NCBI RefSeq assembly: GCF_056712565.1
Contig: NZ_CM160072.1
Direction: 5' to 3' (one strand)
Length of the DNA: 64,000 bases
In this document: in pieces, positions 55,490 to 64,000 of the stretch
Position numbering within the stretch: position 1 is the first letter of the stretch
How the letters are laid out: every line of letters begins with the position of its first letter
The notes under the pieces: model-generated
The model's input: only the letters and a program-made list of their open reading frames with translations
Databases searched by the model: none
Told to the model about the DNA's origin: nothing
Position numbers and translations under genes: made by a program

Positions 55490-56821
55490 ATGAGCGAATT
55501 GACCGATCTTTTATTGCAAGGGCCGCGTTCTGCCCCGGAATTGCGCCAGCGTCTGGCAATCAGTCAGGCGACGTTCTCACGCCTTGTTGCCAGAGAAGAT
55601 CGGGTGATTCGCTTTGGTAAAGCACGGGCAACGCGATATGCACTGCTGCGTCCTTATCGCGGAATTGAGCGTATTCCCGTATGGCGAGTGGATGATGCCG
55701 GAAAGGCGCATAAATTCGCCGACATCCGGTTGTGCTGGCCGCAGGGAAGTTGTCTGGTAACAGGCGCAGATGGCGACGAACGGTGGTTTGATGGTTTGCC
55801 CTGGTATTTGACCGATCTGCGACCGCAGGGGTTTTTGGGGCGCGCGTGGGGCAGGAAGTTAGCCGCGCAACTGAATCTTACTGAAGATATCCGTCTCTGG
55901 CAGGAAGAAGATGTGCTCTACGCCCTGACCGTATTTAGCGGTGAATACACCGGCGGCTGGCTGGTCGGGGAGGGGAATTATCAGCGATGGATTACTGCAC
56001 AACGCCCTGCGGCAATTCCTCTGGATCAAAAACTCACCCATTACGAACAACTGGCAAGCGATGCACTGGCAGGAGAAATTGTGGGTTCTTCTGCGGGCGG
56101 TGAGCAGCCAAAATTTACCTGCTATGCACAAACGCCGTCAGGCAATAAACATGTGCTGGTTAAATTCACCGTGCCACAGCAAACCGCGGTCAGCCAACGT
56201 TGGGGCGACTTGCTTATTGCGGAATCTATTGCCGCGCAAATCCTGCGCGACGGCGGGATCCACGCCATCGAGTCAACGGTGCTTGTAACAAGTAACAGGC
56301 AGGTATTCCTTGAAGCGGAACGATTTGACTGCAAAGGTAACGATGGTCGCTTGCCCATTGTGTCGCTGGAGGCGGTGCAGAGTGAGTTTATCTCTTCTCC
56401 GGGATCGTGGCCGGAGGCTATGCGCCGTTTGTGTGAGCAACAACTTGTCACTCACCAGAGCGTGGCGCAAACAGAAGTGATCTGGGCGTTTGGGCGACTT
56501 ATCGCCAACAGCGATATGCACGCAGGCAATTTATCATTTTATTTATCTGAACCACCATTTGCGCTGACGCCCGTCTACGACATGCTGCCGATGGCCTATG
56601 CACCAAACAGCGCCGGAATGTTGCGTGATGCTGCCATTGAGGTGAGGTTTGATCTTAACGTCAGTAAAAGTGCATGGTTAACGGCGATCCCGCTGGCGCA
56701 GCAGTTCTGGCAAACGGTCGCCGGAGATCCGCGTATCAGCGAGGCATTTCGCCACATTGCACAAGAAATGCCGGAAAAAATCCGGCAAATCGAAGGGAAA
56801 GTTGCCCGCATGGGCGGGTAA
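55490..56821 (+). CDS. yjjJ: HipA-family Ser/Thr kinase toxin homologue with fused N-terminal HTH-like segment
   Basis: 443-aa ORF; the N-terminal ~50 aa (LRQRLAISQATFSRLVA) look HTH-like, followed by HipA-like N and C regions; no hipB-like ORF adjacent. Confidence 0.85.
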   Translation: MSELTDLLLQGPRSAPELRQRLAISQATFSRLVAREDRVIRFGKARATRYALLRPYRGIERIPVWRVDDAGKAHKFADIRLCWPQGSCLVTGADGDERWFDGLPWYLTDLRPQGFLGRAWGRKLAAQLNLTEDIRLWQEEDVLYALTVFSGEYTGGWLVGEGNYQRWITAQRPAAIPLDQKLTHYEQLASDALAGEIVGSSAGGEQPKFTCYAQTPSGNKHVLVKFTVPQQTAVSQRWGDLLIAESIAAQILRDGGIHAIESTVLVTSNRQVFLEAERFDCKGNDGRLPIVSLEAVQSEFISSPGSWPEAMRRLCEQQLVTHQSVAQTEVIWAFGRLIANSDMHAGNLSFYLSEPPFALTPVYDMLPMAYAPNSAGMLRDAAIEVRFDLNVSKSAWLTAIPLAQQFWQTVAGDPRISEAFRHIAQEMPEKIRQIEGKVARMGG

Positions 56822-61035: not shown

Positions 61036-62268
61036 ATGTCGTCATTTGATTACCTGAAAACTGCCATCAAGCAACAGGGCTGCACTCTACAGCAGGTAGC
61101 TGATGCCAGCGGTATGACCAAAGGGTATTTAAGCCAGTTACTGAATGCCAAAATTAAAAGCCCCAGCGCACAAAAGCTGGAGGCATTGCACCGTTATTTG
61201 GGACTTGAATTTCCCCGGCAGAAGAAAACGATCGGTGTCGTATTCGGTAAGTTTTACCCGCTGCATACTGGACATATCTACCTTATCCAGCGCGCCTGTA
61301 GCCAGGTTGACGAGCTGCATATCATTATGGGTTTTGACGATACCCGCGACCGCGCATTGTTCGAAGACAGCGCCATGTCGCAGCAGCCAACCGTGCCGGA
61401 TCGTCTGCGCTGGTTATTGCAGACCTTTAAGTATCAAAAAAATATCCGCATTCATGCTTTTAACGAAGAGGGCATGGAACCGTATCCACACGGCTGGGAT
61501 GTGTGGAGCAACGGCATCAAAAAGTTTATGGCCGAAAAAGGCATTCAGCCGGACCTGATCTACACCTCGGAAGAAGCCGATGCGCCGCAGTATATGGAAC
61601 ATCTGGGGATCGAGACGGTGCTGGTCGATCCGAAGCGTACCTTTATGAGTATCAGCGGTGCGCAGATCCGCGAAAACCCGTTCCGCTACTGGGAATATAT
61701 TCCTACGGAAGTGAAGCCATTCTTTGTGCGTACCGTGGCGATCCTCGGTGGTGAATCGAGCGGTAAATCCACCCTGGTAAACAAACTTGCCAATATCTTC
61801 AACACTACCAGTGCGTGGGAATATGGTCGTGATTATGTCTTTTCGCACCTCGGTGGCGATGAGATCGCGTTGCAGTATTCCGACTACGATAAAATCGCGC
61901 TGGGACATGCGCAATATATTGATTTTGCAGTGAAATATGCCAATAAAGTGGCGTTTATCGACACCGATTTTGTCACTACCCAGGCGTTCTGCAAAAAGTA
62001 CGAAGGGCGTGAGCATCCGTTCGTGCAGGCGTTGATTGATGAGTACCGTTTCGATCTGGTGATCCTGCTGGAGAACAACACGCCGTGGGTGGCGGATGGT
62101 TTACGCAGCCTCGGCAGTTCGGTGGATCGCAAAGAGTTCCAGAACTTGCTGGTGGAGATGCTGGAAGAGAACAATATCGAATTCGTGCGGGTTGAAGAGG
62201 ACGATTACGACAGCCGTTTCCTGCGCTGCGTGGAGCTGGTGCGGGAGATGATGGGGGAGCAAAGATAA
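61036..62268 (+). CDS. nadR: Trifunctional NadR (HTH repressor / NMN adenylyltransferase / ribosylnicotinamide kinase)
   Basis: 410-aa ORF; N-terminal HTH, (H/T)xGH nucleotidyltransferase motif (LHTGH), Walker A (GGESSGKST). Confidence 0.95.
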   Translation: MSSFDYLKTAIKQQGCTLQQVADASGMTKGYLSQLLNAKIKSPSAQKLEALHRYLGLEFPRQKKTIGVVFGKFYPLHTGHIYLIQRACSQVDELHIIMGFDDTRDRALFEDSAMSQQPTVPDRLRWLLQTFKYQKNIRIHAFNEEGMEPYPHGWDVWSNGIKKFMAEKGIQPDLIYTSEEADAPQYMEHLGIETVLVDPKRTFMSISGAQIRENPFRYWEYIPTEVKPFFVRTVAILGGESSGKSTLVNKLANIFNTTSAWEYGRDYVFSHLGGDEIALQYSDYDKIALGHAQYIDFAVKYANKVAFIDTDFVTTQAFCKKYEGREHPFVQALIDEYRFDLVILLENNTPWVADGLRSLGSSVDRKEFQNLLVEMLEENNIEFVRVEEDDYDSRFLRCVELVREMMGEQR

Positions 62269-62297
62269 TCATCTTTATAAGATGTTGAGTGGGATTA

Positions 62298-62345
62298 CTG
62301 ATTCAAAAGTGTACTTAGTACTCCATTTCGGTGTACAATGTACCT
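62298..62345 (+). promoter_or_regulatory. Candidate promoter/operator of the toxin-antitoxin pair (two GTAC-N3-GTAC inverted repeats)
   Basis: GTACTTAGTAC (62311-62321) and GTACAATGTAC (62333-62343); the second overlaps a TACAAT -10-like hexamer just upstream of the toxin start. Confidence 0.45.
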
Positions 62346-62359
62346 GCCAGGGAGGGGGA

Positions 62360-62692
62360 ATGGGTAAGGCGATAATATTTATAGAGACGCCAATGTTTAC
62401 GCGTCAGATCAAGCAGATTGCAACCGATGATGAATTAAAGGAATTACAAAAAGAACTCATCGGAACTCCCGATAAAGGTGATCTCATTCAGCAGACTGGT
62501 GGATTGCGTAAAGTCCGAATGGCTGCGGGTTCACAGGGAAAAAGTGGCAGTGTCAGAATAATTTACTTTCTGGCGACGGAAGAGATTATTTATTTGATTA
62601 TGGCCTATCCGAAAAATGCCAAAGATAGTCTGACAGATACGGAAAAAGCTCAACTAAAGAAGTTGACGAAACTGCTCAAAGGCGAGATATAA
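62360..62692 (+). CDS. RelE/ParE-superfamily toxin, HigB-like (toxin-first gene order)
   Basis: ORF 62282..62692; start set at ATG 62360 (MGKAIIFIETPMFTRQIKQ, 110 aa) with a GGAGGG Shine-Dalgarno; 1-nt gap to the HTH gene downstream; not present between nadR and ettA in K-12 as I recall. Confidence 0.65.
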   Translation: MGKAIIFIETPMFTRQIKQIATDDELKELQKELIGTPDKGDLIQQTGGLRKVRMAAGSQGKSGSVRIIYFLATEEIIYLIMAYPKNAKDSLTDTEKAQLKKLTKLLKGEI

Positions 62693-62693
62693 A

Positions 62694-62978
62694 ATGAGTT
62701 TTTTTGATGAGTTGAAAACCTCTCTGGAAGAGGCTGTCGAGATTAAACAAGGTTTAAAAGAACCTGCACGGGTGACCCGCTACGAAATTGCGGATGTTAA
62801 AGCTATTCGTGAGCAACTCAACGTTTCTCAAAGTGAGATGGCAAAAGCTCTGGGAACCAGTGTGGATACCATTAAAAGCTGGGAATCGAAGCGAAGAAAT
62901 CCTACGGGATTGGCTGCAAAAGTACTTGCCACAATTAAAGAAAATCCTGCCTTTTTCCGGGAACTTGCTTCCCATTAA
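62694..62978 (+). CDS. XRE-family HTH antitoxin, HigA-like
   Basis: 94-aa ORF with central HTH (IREQLNVSQSEMAKALGTSVDTIKSWE); tightly coupled to the upstream toxin-like ORF. Confidence 0.65.
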   Translation: MSFFDELKTSLEEAVEIKQGLKEPARVTRYEIADVKAIREQLNVSQSEMAKALGTSVDTIKSWESKRRNPTGLAAKVLATIKENPAFFRELASH

Positions 62979-62991
62979 TCATTTAACTAAT

Positions 62992-63025
62992 ACCGGATGC
63001 GATGCTGGTGCGCCGCATCCGGCAT
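62992..63025. repeat. REP element downstream of the TA pair
   Basis: CCGGATGCGATGCTGGTGCGCCGCATCCGG palindrome. Confidence 0.65.
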
Positions 63026-63033
63026 TTTACGCA

Positions 63034-64000
63034 TTACTTCGCAATACGCTTGTACTTGATACGCTTCGGCTCCAGCGCGTCTGCGCCCAGCGTGCGTTTC
63101 TTGTACTCTTCGTACTCGGTAAAGTTACCTTCGAAGAACTCAACTTTACCTTCATCCTGGTAATCCAGAATGTGGGTGGCGATACGGTCGAGGAACCAAC
63201 GGTCGTGCGAGATAACCATCGCGCAGCCCGGGAACTCCAGCAGGGCGTTTTCCAGTGCGCGCAGGGTTTCGATATCCAGGTCGTTGGTTGGTTCGTCGAG
63301 CAGCAGCATGTTGCCGCCAACCTGCAGCAGCTTCGCCAGATGCAGACGACCGCGCTCACCGCCGGAGAGTTCGCCAACGCGTTTACCCTGATCAACCCCT
63401 TTAAAGTTAAAGCGGCCAACGTAGGCGCGGCTTGGCATCTCGGTGTTGCCGATCTTCATGATATCCAGCCCGCCGGAAACTTCTTCCCAAACGGTTTTGC
63501 TGTTATCCATTGAGTCACGGAACTGATCAACCGACGCCAGTTTCACCGTTTCACCCAAAGTGATGGTGCCGCTGTCCGGCTGTTCCTGACCAGAGATCAT
63601 ACGGAACAGCGTCGATTTACCCGCACCGTTCGGACCGATGATCCCGACGATCGCTCCTTTCGGGATCGAGAAGCTCAGGGAGTCAATCAGCAGACGATCA
63701 CCATAGGATTTACGCAGGTTGCTGACTTCCAGCACTTTATCGCCCAGACGCGGTCCAGGTGGAATAAACAGTTCGTTGGTTTCGTTACGTTTCTGATATT
63801 CGGTGCTGTTGAGTTCTTCAAAGCGCGCCAGACGTGCTTTACCTTTTGACTGACGGCCTTTAGTTCCCTGACGTACCCACTCCAGCTCTTTCTCGATCGA
63901 CTTACGACGCGCCGCTTCTTGTGAAGCTTCCTGCGCCAGACGCTGATCTTTCTGCTCCAGCCAGGAGGAGTAGTTACCTTCCCACGGAATACCTTCACCG
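63034..64000 (-). CDS. ettA: Energy-dependent translational throttle ABC-F ATPase EttA (YjjK), C-terminal part; the N-terminal part lies beyond the window end
   Basis: Minus-strand frame open from 63034 to the window edge; ABC signature LSGGERGRLHLAKLL, Walker B LLLDEPTNDLD and second Walker A GPNGAGKST visible. Confidence 0.9.
   Translation of the reverse strand, partial: GEGIPWEGNYSSWLEQKDQRLAQEASQEAARRKSIEKELEWVRQGTKGRQSKGKARLARFEELNSTEYQKRNETNELFIPPGPRLGDKVLEVSNLRKSYGDRLLIDSLSFSIPKGAIVGIIGPNGAGKSTLFRMISGQEQPDSGTITLGETVKLASVDQFRDSMDNSKTVWEEVSGGLDIMKIGNTEMPSRAYVGRFNFKGVDQGKRVGELSGGERGRLHLAKLLQVGGNMLLLDEPTNDLDIETLRALENALLEFPGCAMVISHDRWFLDRIATHILDYQDEGKVEFFEGNFTEYEEYKKRTLGADALEPKRIKYKRIAK

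Follow-up and report, generated by a model that had tools for sequence, protein, structure and literature searches.

Among described toxin-antitoxin modules, the closest to the one reported here are HigB2/HigA2 of Vibrio cholerae, which is located in the superintegron, and HigB2/HigA2 of the Acinetobacter baumannii plasmid pAB120. Mutagenesis has shown the importance of R51, R64, Y82 and K84 in V. cholerae HigB2, and alanine at the catalytic lysine lowers activity 3000-fold (PMC5416850). HigB2 has been placed nearer to RelE than to the HigB of Rts1 and is very similar to RelE in its active site and cleavage pattern, although its catalytic tyrosine lies on a strand rather than, as in RelE, on the C-terminal helix (PMC5416850). 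A peptide comprising residues 3 to 22 of V. cholerae HigA2 is sufficient to neutralise the toxin. The pAB120 toxin is toxic in Escherichia coli and acts as a ribonuclease, the module stabilises plasmids, and both the antitoxin and the toxin-antitoxin complex autorepress the promoter (PMC5906591). Also relevant is MqsA, the antitoxin of E. coli MqsR/MqsA, which recognises the 5-N3-5 palindrome AACCT-N3-AGGTT (PMC4894380).

The locus described here lies between nadR and ettA in a 64-kb window (the whole stretch of DNA analysed, to which all positions refer). It is very probably a two-gene type II toxin-antitoxin operon like HigB2/HigA2 of V. cholerae, working by the mechanism proposed below. The family to which it belongs is known, this member of it is uncharacterised, and the module is no new kind of system. 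Apart from a mention in a PIRT-Seq study (PMC12350097), no study of the E. coli module was found in the searchable literature. A higBA locus was deleted in strain CFT073 by Norton and Mulvey, and no tie between that deletion and the present locus was found.

The gene pair and its products

Two small genes on the plus strand occupy the nadR-ettA spacer, at the coordinates and in the toxin-first order given in a preliminary description of this DNA. The upstream gene (62360-62692) encodes a 110-amino-acid putative toxin (RelE type, PF06296, HigB2 subfamily; RefSeq WP_000513550.1), and the downstream gene, nadS (62694-62978), encodes a 94-amino-acid predicted antitoxin with a toxin-binding segment at approximately residues 1 to 32 and an XRE helix-turn-helix at approximately residues 33 to 94. 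A single base separates the two genes (TAA-A-ATG), and nadS and ettA are convergent, with their 3' ends facing each other. Both genes are already present in the RefSeq annotation. The toxin open reading frame extends mechanically back to an ATG at 62282, whereas the RefSeq start is at 62360; directly 5' of the RefSeq start is a Shine-Dalgarno region read from the sequence (62350-62359, plus strand; GGGAGGGGGA), and the similarity of relatives begins at residue 1. The same organisation was found in other genera: of 57 homologous loci, 56 have a NadS gene immediately after the toxin gene, the 57th ending at a contig edge, and among 46 intact pairs the genes are 1 nt apart in 24 and overlap in 17, by 1, 4 or 14 nt. 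The genome-collection scan returned no Escherichia locus; that of E. fergusonii was recovered via the protein cluster.

The spacer between nadR and the toxin gene (62269-62359, plus strand), which holds the promoter/operator region and the ribosome-binding site, has a G+C content of 41.8%, compared to 50.7% for nadR. A promoter/terminator scan found nothing resembling a terminator between nadR and the toxin gene, and an Rfam scan of positions 62000-63400 returned no RNA family. Downstream of nadS, where a REP element had been noted, an inverted repeat at 62993-63022 forms a predicted hairpin (-21.6 kcal/mol, z = -3.7) that carries the REP core GCCGGATGCGGCG, present in 7 copies in the window versus 0.24 expected. 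The hairpin is retained in K-12-type spacers; it is shared by the 3' ends of nadS and ettA and is likely a transcript end or stabiliser.

The initial placement of the upstream product in the RelE/ParE superfamily was borne out by a Pfam search, in which residues 13 to 106 matched RelE (PF06296; E = 5.9e-10), and the best solved-structure matches were chains of V. cholerae HigB-2 (phmmer; E = 8e-17). R53, R66, Y83 and K85 of the toxin align with R51, R64, Y82 and K84 of V. cholerae HigB2 and are invariant across 33 homologues. An AlphaFold model of the toxin fused to NadS, built from a paired alignment, had a pLDDT of 83 and a pTM of 0.75. The modelled toxin, at a pLDDT of ~90 over most of its length and lower in the β2-β3 loop, has a RelE-like fold, and its best Foldseek matches were HigB2 chains (TM 0.80 to 0.87; 5jaa_D, TM 0.87, rmsd 2.0). 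At E ≤ 10 the only Pfam matches were RelE, a weak match to Gp49 and one chance match; because there was no match to the Pfam HigB-like toxin profile, the toxin falls outside the Rts1 and K-12 HigBA family. These comparisons of sequence assign it to the HigB2 (PF06296) subfamily of the RelE/ParE superfamily. Of the HigBA label given earlier, the toxin-first order and the nearest structures (HigB-2 and HigA-2) stand, but the label applies in the sense of HigB2/HigA2 (PF06296/NadS) and not of Rts1 or K-12 HigBA. In NCBIfam the toxin matched only Crn1, below threshold (16.9 versus 125 bits). Like the weak PADLOC matches to CARF proteins (E > 1e-3) and a weak Foldseek match to Cami1, this match is not evidence of CRISPR signalling; we tentatively attribute all of these to RelE-like domains fused to CARF proteins.

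The downstream product matched the NCBIfam NadS model over its full length (NF041265; residues 1 to 94 of 94; 182.6 bits versus a cutoff of 60). Its original classification as an XRE-type helix-turn-helix protein is upheld by a match to Pfam HTH_3 at residues 35 to 79 (E = 6e-10) and by HigA-2 as the best solved-structure match (E = 2e-6, aligned over residues 33 to 91), and in the AlphaFold model the C-terminal domain matched that of HigA2 in Foldseek with an rmsd of 1.0 to 1.4. The N-terminal helix and strand had block-mean pLDDT values of 93 to 96 in the model fused to the toxin versus 48 to 56 for residues 1 to 30 of NadS modelled alone. Thus the N-terminus was modelled with confidence only when the toxin was present, which fits a predicted toxin-binding segment that is disordered alone. 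Assignment of NadS to the MqsA family (TIGR03830) was rejected; the match was below the cutoff (38 versus 61.8 bits) and confined to the C-terminal domain, and NadS contains no cysteine for a CxxC motif.

Operator, promoter and proposed mechanism

Two perfect palindromes of the form GTAC-N3-GTAC lie upstream of the toxin gene, at the positions first reported for them and overlapping a -10-like TACAAT. O1 (62311-62321; GTACTTAGTAC) reads GTACT-T-AGTAC, overlaps a -35-like hexamer, TGTACT (62310-62315), and is identical in E. fergusonii. O2 (62333-62343; GTACAATGTAC) reads GTACA-A-TGTAC and contains the -10-like hexamer (62334-62339). O1 and O2 were the only matches to GTACNNNGTAC in the 64-kb window (0.29 expected). 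They are 22 bp apart, and paired sites 20 to 22 bp apart were also found in homologous loci L004, L007, L010, L017 and L018.

Of the 53 homologous loci over which the motif was counted, all from other Gammaproteobacteria, 46 had it within the 100 nt that precede the toxin gene. Its density was 9.8 per kb upstream versus 0.0155 per kb in the flanks, a difference of ~630-fold. In these loci the spacer of the motif usually reads as a -10 hexamer, and the best promoter-like site overlapped the motif in 42 of 47 sequences (the 46 loci and the window). Because the motif is conserved across loci and overlaps the -10 element, GTAC-N3-GTAC is considered a conserved operator. The overlapping promoter of the window is weak by consensus (8/12) and was not called in a generic promoter scan. 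Within the toxin gene the same scan marked a promoter-like site at 62530-62559, but such sites occur at chance frequency, and an internal nadS promoter is therefore not claimed. The presence of the motif upstream of 46 of 53 homologous operons strongly supports the earlier suggestion of an autoregulatory operator at the two repeats, in keeping with its overlap with the promoter.

In the proposed mechanism, in which toxicity, neutralisation, DNA binding and physiological role are predicted, the 110-amino-acid toxin would be a RelE-like, ribosome-dependent mRNA endonuclease with R53, R66, Y83 and K85 as its active site, and NadS would be translated by coupling across the 1-nt gap. The N-terminal ~32 residues of NadS would fold on the toxin as a helix and a strand and thereby neutralise it, and the C-terminal XRE helix-turn-helix, as a dimer, would bind both GTAC-N3-GTAC palindromes. 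Since O1 and O2 cover the -35 and -10 elements of the operon's own promoter, we propose that the operon is autorepressed. If NadS were lost or degraded, the toxin would be released and translation would stop. The recognition helix varies hardly at all across the NadS family. NadS departs from V. cholerae HigA2 at three of the four residues that contact bases in HigA2, as well as in operator geometry, and its DNA binding is therefore predicted from conservation.

History of the locus in Escherichia and alternative readings

E. fergusonii has an intact module at the same nadR-ettA locus. Intact modules were found in 12% of complete E. coli genomes (672 or 673 of 5426), including the extraintestinal pathogenic strains CFT073, UM146 and APEC O2:K1:H7 and the E. 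coli type strain, assigned to B2. A relic made up of ~26 nt from the end of the toxin gene and nadS codons 1 to 39 is carried by ~79% of the complete genomes, and 464 genomes had no match. Because K-12-type spacers keep the end of the toxin gene and the start of nadS, they are deletion relics and not preinsertion sites. Together with the intact module of E. fergusonii, the relics therefore indicate that the module was ancestral at this site and has been lost in most E. coli, which contradicts the earlier description of the module as inserted between nadR and ettA. The low G+C content of the module points to a foreign origin further back, yet the module is old at the site. The absence of K-12 genes at this position, suggested in the preliminary description, is correct for the intact pair, but K-12-type genomes carry the truncated nadS.

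The reading that competes best with a functional toxin-antitoxin operon is that the module is decaying or domesticated, with a weak or inactive toxin, so that an autoregulated DNA-binding protein and a passenger gene are heading to the K-12 stub. The loss of the toxin in ~79% of genomes is in line with this, as are the several amino acid variants of the toxin compared to a NadS protein that is identical in the five Escherichia genomes examined. The substitution K85I, present in the CFT073 allele and in 223 of 672 carriers (one third), falls on the very residue whose replacement by alanine cost V. cholerae HigB2 3000-fold, and the CFT073 allele, because of K85I, lacks the full catalytic set. 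However, all four catalytic residues are kept in the window allele and in E. fergusonii, the exact 61-mer of the window around codon 85 was found in 281 genomes, and the ~98% lineage retains lysine 85 with a synonymous change. Changes between lineages are mostly synonymous (in the toxin, 5 synonymous versus 2 to 3 nonsynonymous), and neither the two operators nor the close coupling of the genes has been disrupted. Thus, decay seems unlikely to account for the module of the window. The module is dispensable: most E. coli have deleted it, and K85I is present in one third of carriers.

The relic itself contains a nadS stub of 55 codons, which is found in most E. coli, including K-12 and O157 Sakai. 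It begins 33 nt after nadR and retains a ribosome-binding region of its own; its codons cover the predicted toxin-binding segment (residues 1 to 39) but not the DNA-binding domain. All six amino acid changes of the stub are in codons 23 to 39; residues 1 to 22 are unchanged from the intact antitoxin and differ by one residue from the antitoxins of an IncN plasmid and of a small mobilisable plasmid. PIRT-Seq has indicated that the stub is expressed in K-12 (PMC12350097). It is conceivable, although we regard it as doubtful, that the stub is not junk but a retained, expressed antidote peptide against plasmid-borne toxins of the HigB2 family. The intact module accounts for the small gene listed as 'nadS' in K-12 by annotation pipelines and in a recent expression screen.

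The physiological role of the module is probably selfish maintenance and possibly defence. Several type II modules of the RelE superfamily have been reported to defend against phage, and the family is mobile, being found in 887 plasmid records, in a few records of phages or prophages and in PHROG families 5869 and 2104. It could thus be argued that the main role is antiphage abortive infection, in which a phage would deplete NadS or halt host transcription and so free the RNase. Yet with either protein the matches in PADLOC-DB v2 were only to generic helix-turn-helix or, weakly, to CARF proteins, and the module is surrounded by housekeeping genes rather than a defence island. Defence as the main role appears slightly less probable than decay, and it is compatible with, not exclusive of, the toxin-antitoxin operon proposed here. 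It is highly improbable that NadS regulates NAD metabolism with NadR, the upstream open reading frame being an accessory, for although nadS adjoins nadR and bears a derived name, no terminator separates nadR from the module, and the K-12 stub 33 nt after nadR is reported to be expressed (PMC12350097), none of the 57 homologous loci in other genera adjoins nadR or ettA, 46 of 53 loci have the motif ahead of the operon formed by the module itself, the motif is absent elsewhere in the 64-kb window, and NadS always travels with the toxin, small mobilisable plasmids included.

The toxin-antitoxin operon proposed here adds an unstudied chromosomal module of the HigBA2 type to a family that is well served by structural and biochemical work, and yields a well-supported operator consensus that applies to the NadS family as a whole. 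Across thousands of genomes, the locus is a natural experiment with three states, intact toxin, K85-substituted toxin, and deleted toxin with a stub, which could show how chromosomal toxin-antitoxin modules decay.

Comparison with described modules

The module shares with V. cholerae HigB2/HigA2 (PDB 5JAA, 5JA8 and 8A0X) the toxin-first order, a toxin that is ~36% identical with the same fold (TM 0.80 to 0.87) and the same four catalytic residues, and an antitoxin with an N-terminal toxin-binding segment and a C-terminal XRE helix-turn-helix. The sliding IIY(Y/F) strand of HigB2 is also kept in the toxin of the window, and the β2-β3 loop, disordered in HigB2, is glycine/lysine rich and modelled with low confidence here. 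In both systems the operator has TGTAC half-sites and overlaps the -10 element, but V. cholerae has a single TGTACGC-N5-GCGTACA, whereas the window has two 11-bp GTAC-N3-GTAC sites 22 bp apart. NadS is 10 residues shorter than HigA2, and the base-contacting R68, E71 and N72 of HigA2 are replaced by D58, K61 and S62 (three of the four differ). Unlike the V. cholerae module, the module of the window is in a fixed housekeeping spacer.

Acinetobacter plasmid toxins, in the same family as pAB120 HigB2/HigA2, are ~51 to 53% identical to the toxin of the window (tblastn), with ~51% for the A. baumannii plasmid homologue; the pAB120 module is plasmid borne with a maintenance role, whereas the copy in the window is chromosomal. 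E. coli MqsR/MqsA has the same toxin-first order, the C-terminal XRE domain of MqsA is structurally like NadS (3fmy, TM 0.78), and AACCT-N3-AGGTT has the same geometry as TGTAC-N3-GTACA in the window. However, NadS does not have the zinc-binding N-terminal domain of MqsA, and the toxin is not MqsR-like. E. coli RelE and the toxin of the window both belong to the RelE/ParE superfamily, but the gene order of RelB/RelE is reversed and the antitoxin folds differ, NadS being an XRE helix-turn-helix protein, which RelB is not.

A toxin-antitoxin gene pair between nadR and ettA

Two tightly coupled ORFs on the plus strand fill the spacer that begins where nadR ends (62268), as the preliminary description had stated: a 110-codon toxin gene (62360-62692) and the 94-codon antitoxin gene nadS (62694-62978), joined by the sequence TAA-A-ATG with one base between them. 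In a mechanical ORF list the first ORF started at ATG 62282 and was thus longer. The start at 62360 was preferred because of the purine-rich GGGAGGGGGA at 62350-62359, similarity to relatives beginning at residue 1, and a RefSeq annotation with an equivalent start, which comes from an identical stretch in another genome and carries the labels "type II toxin-antitoxin system RelE/ParE family toxin" and "nadS." The predicted REP element downstream was confirmed as a hairpin at 62993-63022 (-21.6 kcal/mol, z = -3.7), and the REP core GCCGGATGCGGCG has seven copies in the 64-kb window versus 0.24 expected.

This kind of system is already known, and both genes are already annotated. However, no study of the E. 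coli module was found in the searchable literature; the sole paper naming nadS reported that its truncated K-12 form is expressed and treated it as hypothetical (PMC12350097). The pair is most likely a functional module of the HigBA2 type, in which the toxin would be a RelE-like, ribosome-dependent mRNase, the N terminus of NadS would neutralize it, and the operon would be autorepressed through two upstream operators, O1 and O2.

An HMM search bore out the family assignments expected for both proteins, with the toxin matching RelE (PF06296; E = 5.9e-10) and the antitoxin containing an XRE helix-turn-helix (residues 35-79). The Pfam scan of the toxin gave no HigB-like match, and the module was therefore placed with HigB2/HigA2 rather than with Rts1 or K-12 HigBA. 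Thus, the earlier HigBA designation held for the RelE-family toxin and the toxin-first order with an XRE antitoxin, but not for the classical HigB-like profile. The top matches of the toxin among solved structures were chains of Vibrio cholerae HigB-2 (E = 8e-17; ∼36% identity). Alanine substitutions have shown that R51, R64, Y82, and K84 of HigB2 are required for activity, with K84A costing 3,000-fold (Hadzi et al., PMC5416850). These residues align with R53, R66, Y83, and K85 of the window toxin, and none of the four varies among 33 toxin-antitoxin pairs of other bacteria.

NadS is a full-length member of the NCBIfam NadS family (182.6 bits versus a cutoff of 60), and its nearest solved relative is HigA-2 (E = 2e-6). 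The MqsA family was rejected for NadS: the score was under the family cutoff, and NadS has no cysteine and therefore lacks the MqsA zinc domain.

In order to model the pair, toxins from 33 loci were fused to their own antitoxins via a (G4S)6 linker, and the resulting paired alignment was used to predict the window pair (mean pLDDT, 83; pTM, 0.75). The modeled toxin resembled HigB2 chains (TM, 0.80 to 0.87), the antitoxin-bound chain 5jaa_D best, and the modeled helix-turn-helix superimposed on the HigA2 C-terminal domain with an rmsd of 1.0 to 1.4 Å. NadS was modeled with a helix at residues 1-18 and a strand at residues 26-32 (block-mean pLDDT, 93 to 96), the same order described for HigA2 bound to HigB2 (PMC5416850). 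When NadS was predicted alone from its own alignment, the strand was lost and the block-mean pLDDT of residues 1-30 fell to 48 to 56, whereas the helix-turn-helix dropped less (64 to 78). This contrast is consistent with a NadS N terminus that folds upon binding the predicted toxin partner.

Candidate operators and promoter

The two GTAC-N3-GTAC repeats noted upstream of the pair are perfect 5-1-5 palindromes, O1 (GTACTTAGTAC) at 62311-62321 and O2 (GTACAATGTAC) at 62333-62343, and the hexamer TACAAT (62334-62339) falls within O2. No other site in the 64-kb window matches GTACNNNGTAC, for which 0.29 matches were expected overall. A survey of one genome per species yielded 57 homologous loci from Serratia, Enterobacter, Pantoea, Pectobacterium, Xenorhabdus, Photorhabdus, Yersinia, Halomonas/Vreelandella, Thioalkalivibrio, and others, whose toxins, over the best-aligning segment, share 48 to 82% identity with that of the window, in most cases at least 60%. 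A NadS gene lies directly 3′ of the toxin gene in 56 of these, the remaining locus ending at a contig edge; among 46 intact pairs, the gap was 1 nt in 24, and the genes overlapped by 1, 4, or 14 nt in 17.

The DNA upstream of the homologous operons could not be aligned apart from the operator motif, which in 46 of 53 loci lay no more than 100 nt from the toxin start. Its density was 9.8 per kb upstream versus 4 matches in 258 kb of flanking sequence (∼630-fold enrichment), conservation that supports the proposed operator function. The consensus is gGT-GTAC-wwT-GTAC-AC, and paired sites 20 to 22 bp apart were found in the window and five other loci. The recognition helix, TSVDTIKSWExKRRNPTGLAAKVL, is nearly invariant across the NadS family, which would fit the invariant operator core.

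Together with its flanks, the motif spacer forms TACwwT, which resembles a -10 hexamer. In 42 of 47 sequences (the window and 46 homologous loci), the motif is overlapped by the best sigma-70-like site, a count with some circularity, given that the motif is -10-like in its own right. This site often has a good -35 element (e.g., TTGACA, TCGACA, or TTGATA) 16 to 18 nt upstream. The window promoter would be TGTACT, an 18-nt spacer, and TACAAT. It matches 8 of 12 consensus positions and was not called by a generic promoter scan, and it is therefore only inferred.

A further promoter-like site lies inside the toxin gene (62530-62559, plus strand), ∼135 nt ahead of nadS, with TTCACA, an 18-nt spacer, CAGAAT, and an upstream TG. 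Sites of this kind are no more frequent here than expected by chance; internal antitoxin promoters exist in some toxin-first modules.

Allelic state and history of the locus in Escherichia

The toxin gene is present in 672 of 5,426 complete E. coli genomes, always as a single chromosomal copy at least 95% identical, and a query with the whole spacer was at least 80% covered in 673. Over its last 24 kb, the window has the same sequence as APEC O2:K1:H7 and strains related to it. The CFT073 module has a single coding difference from the window, K85I (AAA>ATA; L062:3273-3275, window 62612-62614), which replaces the catalytic lysine. Exact 61-mers around codon 85 assigned 281 of the 672 carriers to the window allele, 223 to the K85I allele, and 168 to other alleles; within the last group, the ∼98% lineage keeps the lysine through AAA>AAG. 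Changes between lineages were 5 synonymous versus 2 to 3 conservative nonsynonymous in the toxin gene and 2 versus 0 in nadS. The window, CFT073, two divergent-lineage genomes, and E. fergusonii ATCC 35469 all encode the same NadS protein.

Judged from these alleles, the window toxin looks catalytically competent, and one third of carriers probably have an attenuated toxin. An alternative, a decaying module whose toxin is weak, is supported by the population data but not by the window allele and is considered unlikely. That phage defense is the main role is rather improbable, and a PADLOC match was absent.

Approximately 4,290 further E. coli genomes match only window positions 62664-62818. 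The spacers of K-12-like JME66, DY612, and O157 Sakai retain the toxin gene's final ∼26 nt, in which the nadS ribosome-binding region lies, and the first 39 nadS codons; the other 16 codons of the resulting 55-codon stub are REP derived (L002:3031-3198, L003:3031-3198, and L072:7508-7675, respectively). The stub starts 33 nt after nadR. The preliminary description, which gave no genes here for K-12, was therefore correct for the toxin but missed the stub. Nor does its term "inserted" apply, given these remnants and the order radA-nadR-toxin-nadS-ettA-slt in E. fergusonii ATCC 35469, where both operators are intact (module at L070:2601-3297).

The three stub-bearing spacers have a common left deletion boundary. 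DG351-2 shares this boundary, but its right junction is different and opens into an unrelated island; its nadS also lacks the start codon. It is therefore likely that the toxin gene and promoter were deleted first and that the orphan antitoxin later decayed by different routes. DG351-2 (L065:2531-5145) represents a third spacer state, with nadS frameshifted and an island (SDR, aldo/keto reductase, SRPBCC, and BhsA-family genes) before ettA; the site between nadR and ettA is variable.

Retention of the stub as an antidote peptide is doubtful. The stub spans the whole predicted toxin-binding segment, and residues 3-22 of HigA2 suffice to neutralize the toxin in V. cholerae (PMC5416850). Stub codons 1-22 have no amino acid change from the intact gene, all six changes being in codons 23-39, and plasmid antitoxins differ from the stub at one residue in the first 18. 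Among 13 of the 14 listed stub cluster variants (the N-terminal fragment P0033 was excluded), 1 of 16 counted substitutions fell in residues 1-22 (binomial, 0.003). The skew carries little weight, since a higher mutation rate of arginine codons could account for it.

Identity between E. fergusonii and the window is 98.2% for the toxin gene and 99.3% for nadS versus 94.2% for nadR and 97.0% for ettA, and the lower divergence of the module may reflect later interspecies exchange. The G+C content of the module (41%; third position, 36 to 41%) is low compared to that of nadR (51%; third position, 62.5%), which points to an ultimately foreign origin. Plasmid records with relatives number 887; among them are a conjugative IncN plasmid and a mobilizable plasmid of 5.6 kb in which the pair follows mbeD. 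A few phage or prophage records also contain relatives. Neither nadR nor ettA adjoins any of the 57 loci from other genera, and "NadS" names a position rather than a function; a role of NadS in NAD regulation is contradicted by these comparative data and highly improbable.

Farther upstream, 5.5 kb from the module, the window has a full-length yjjJ (443 aa; 55490-56821, plus strand), whose product carries a HipA-family toxin annotation. Its place is taken in FDAARGOS_536 and O157 Sakai by an 87-aa helix-turn-helix ORF alone, and an IS200C adjoins yjjJ in CFT073. FDAARGOS_536 also has a reverse-transcriptase-domain gene overlapping a SLATT-domain gene (L071:11843-13742), absent from the window, at a lambdoid prophage end beside prfC where the window is not colinear. 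This pair may be a reverse transcriptase-based defense cassette.

Comparison with characterized systems

Validated relatives of the module are HigBA2 of V. cholerae and HigBA2 of Acinetobacter baumannii plasmid pAB120, which is toxic in E. coli, has ribonuclease activity, represses its own promoter, and stabilizes a plasmid (PMC5906591). The V. cholerae HigA2 footprint covers a single TGTACGC-N5-GCGTACA site reaching over the -10 element (PMC11006873); the TGTAC half-site is common to the window operators, but the spacing differs. Of the four HigA2 residues that contact bases, R68, E71, and N72 correspond to D58, K61, and S62 in NadS, whereas R77 is retained as R67. The 5-N3-5 geometry of the window operators is the same as that of the MqsA operator, AACCT-N3-AGGTT (PMC4894380).
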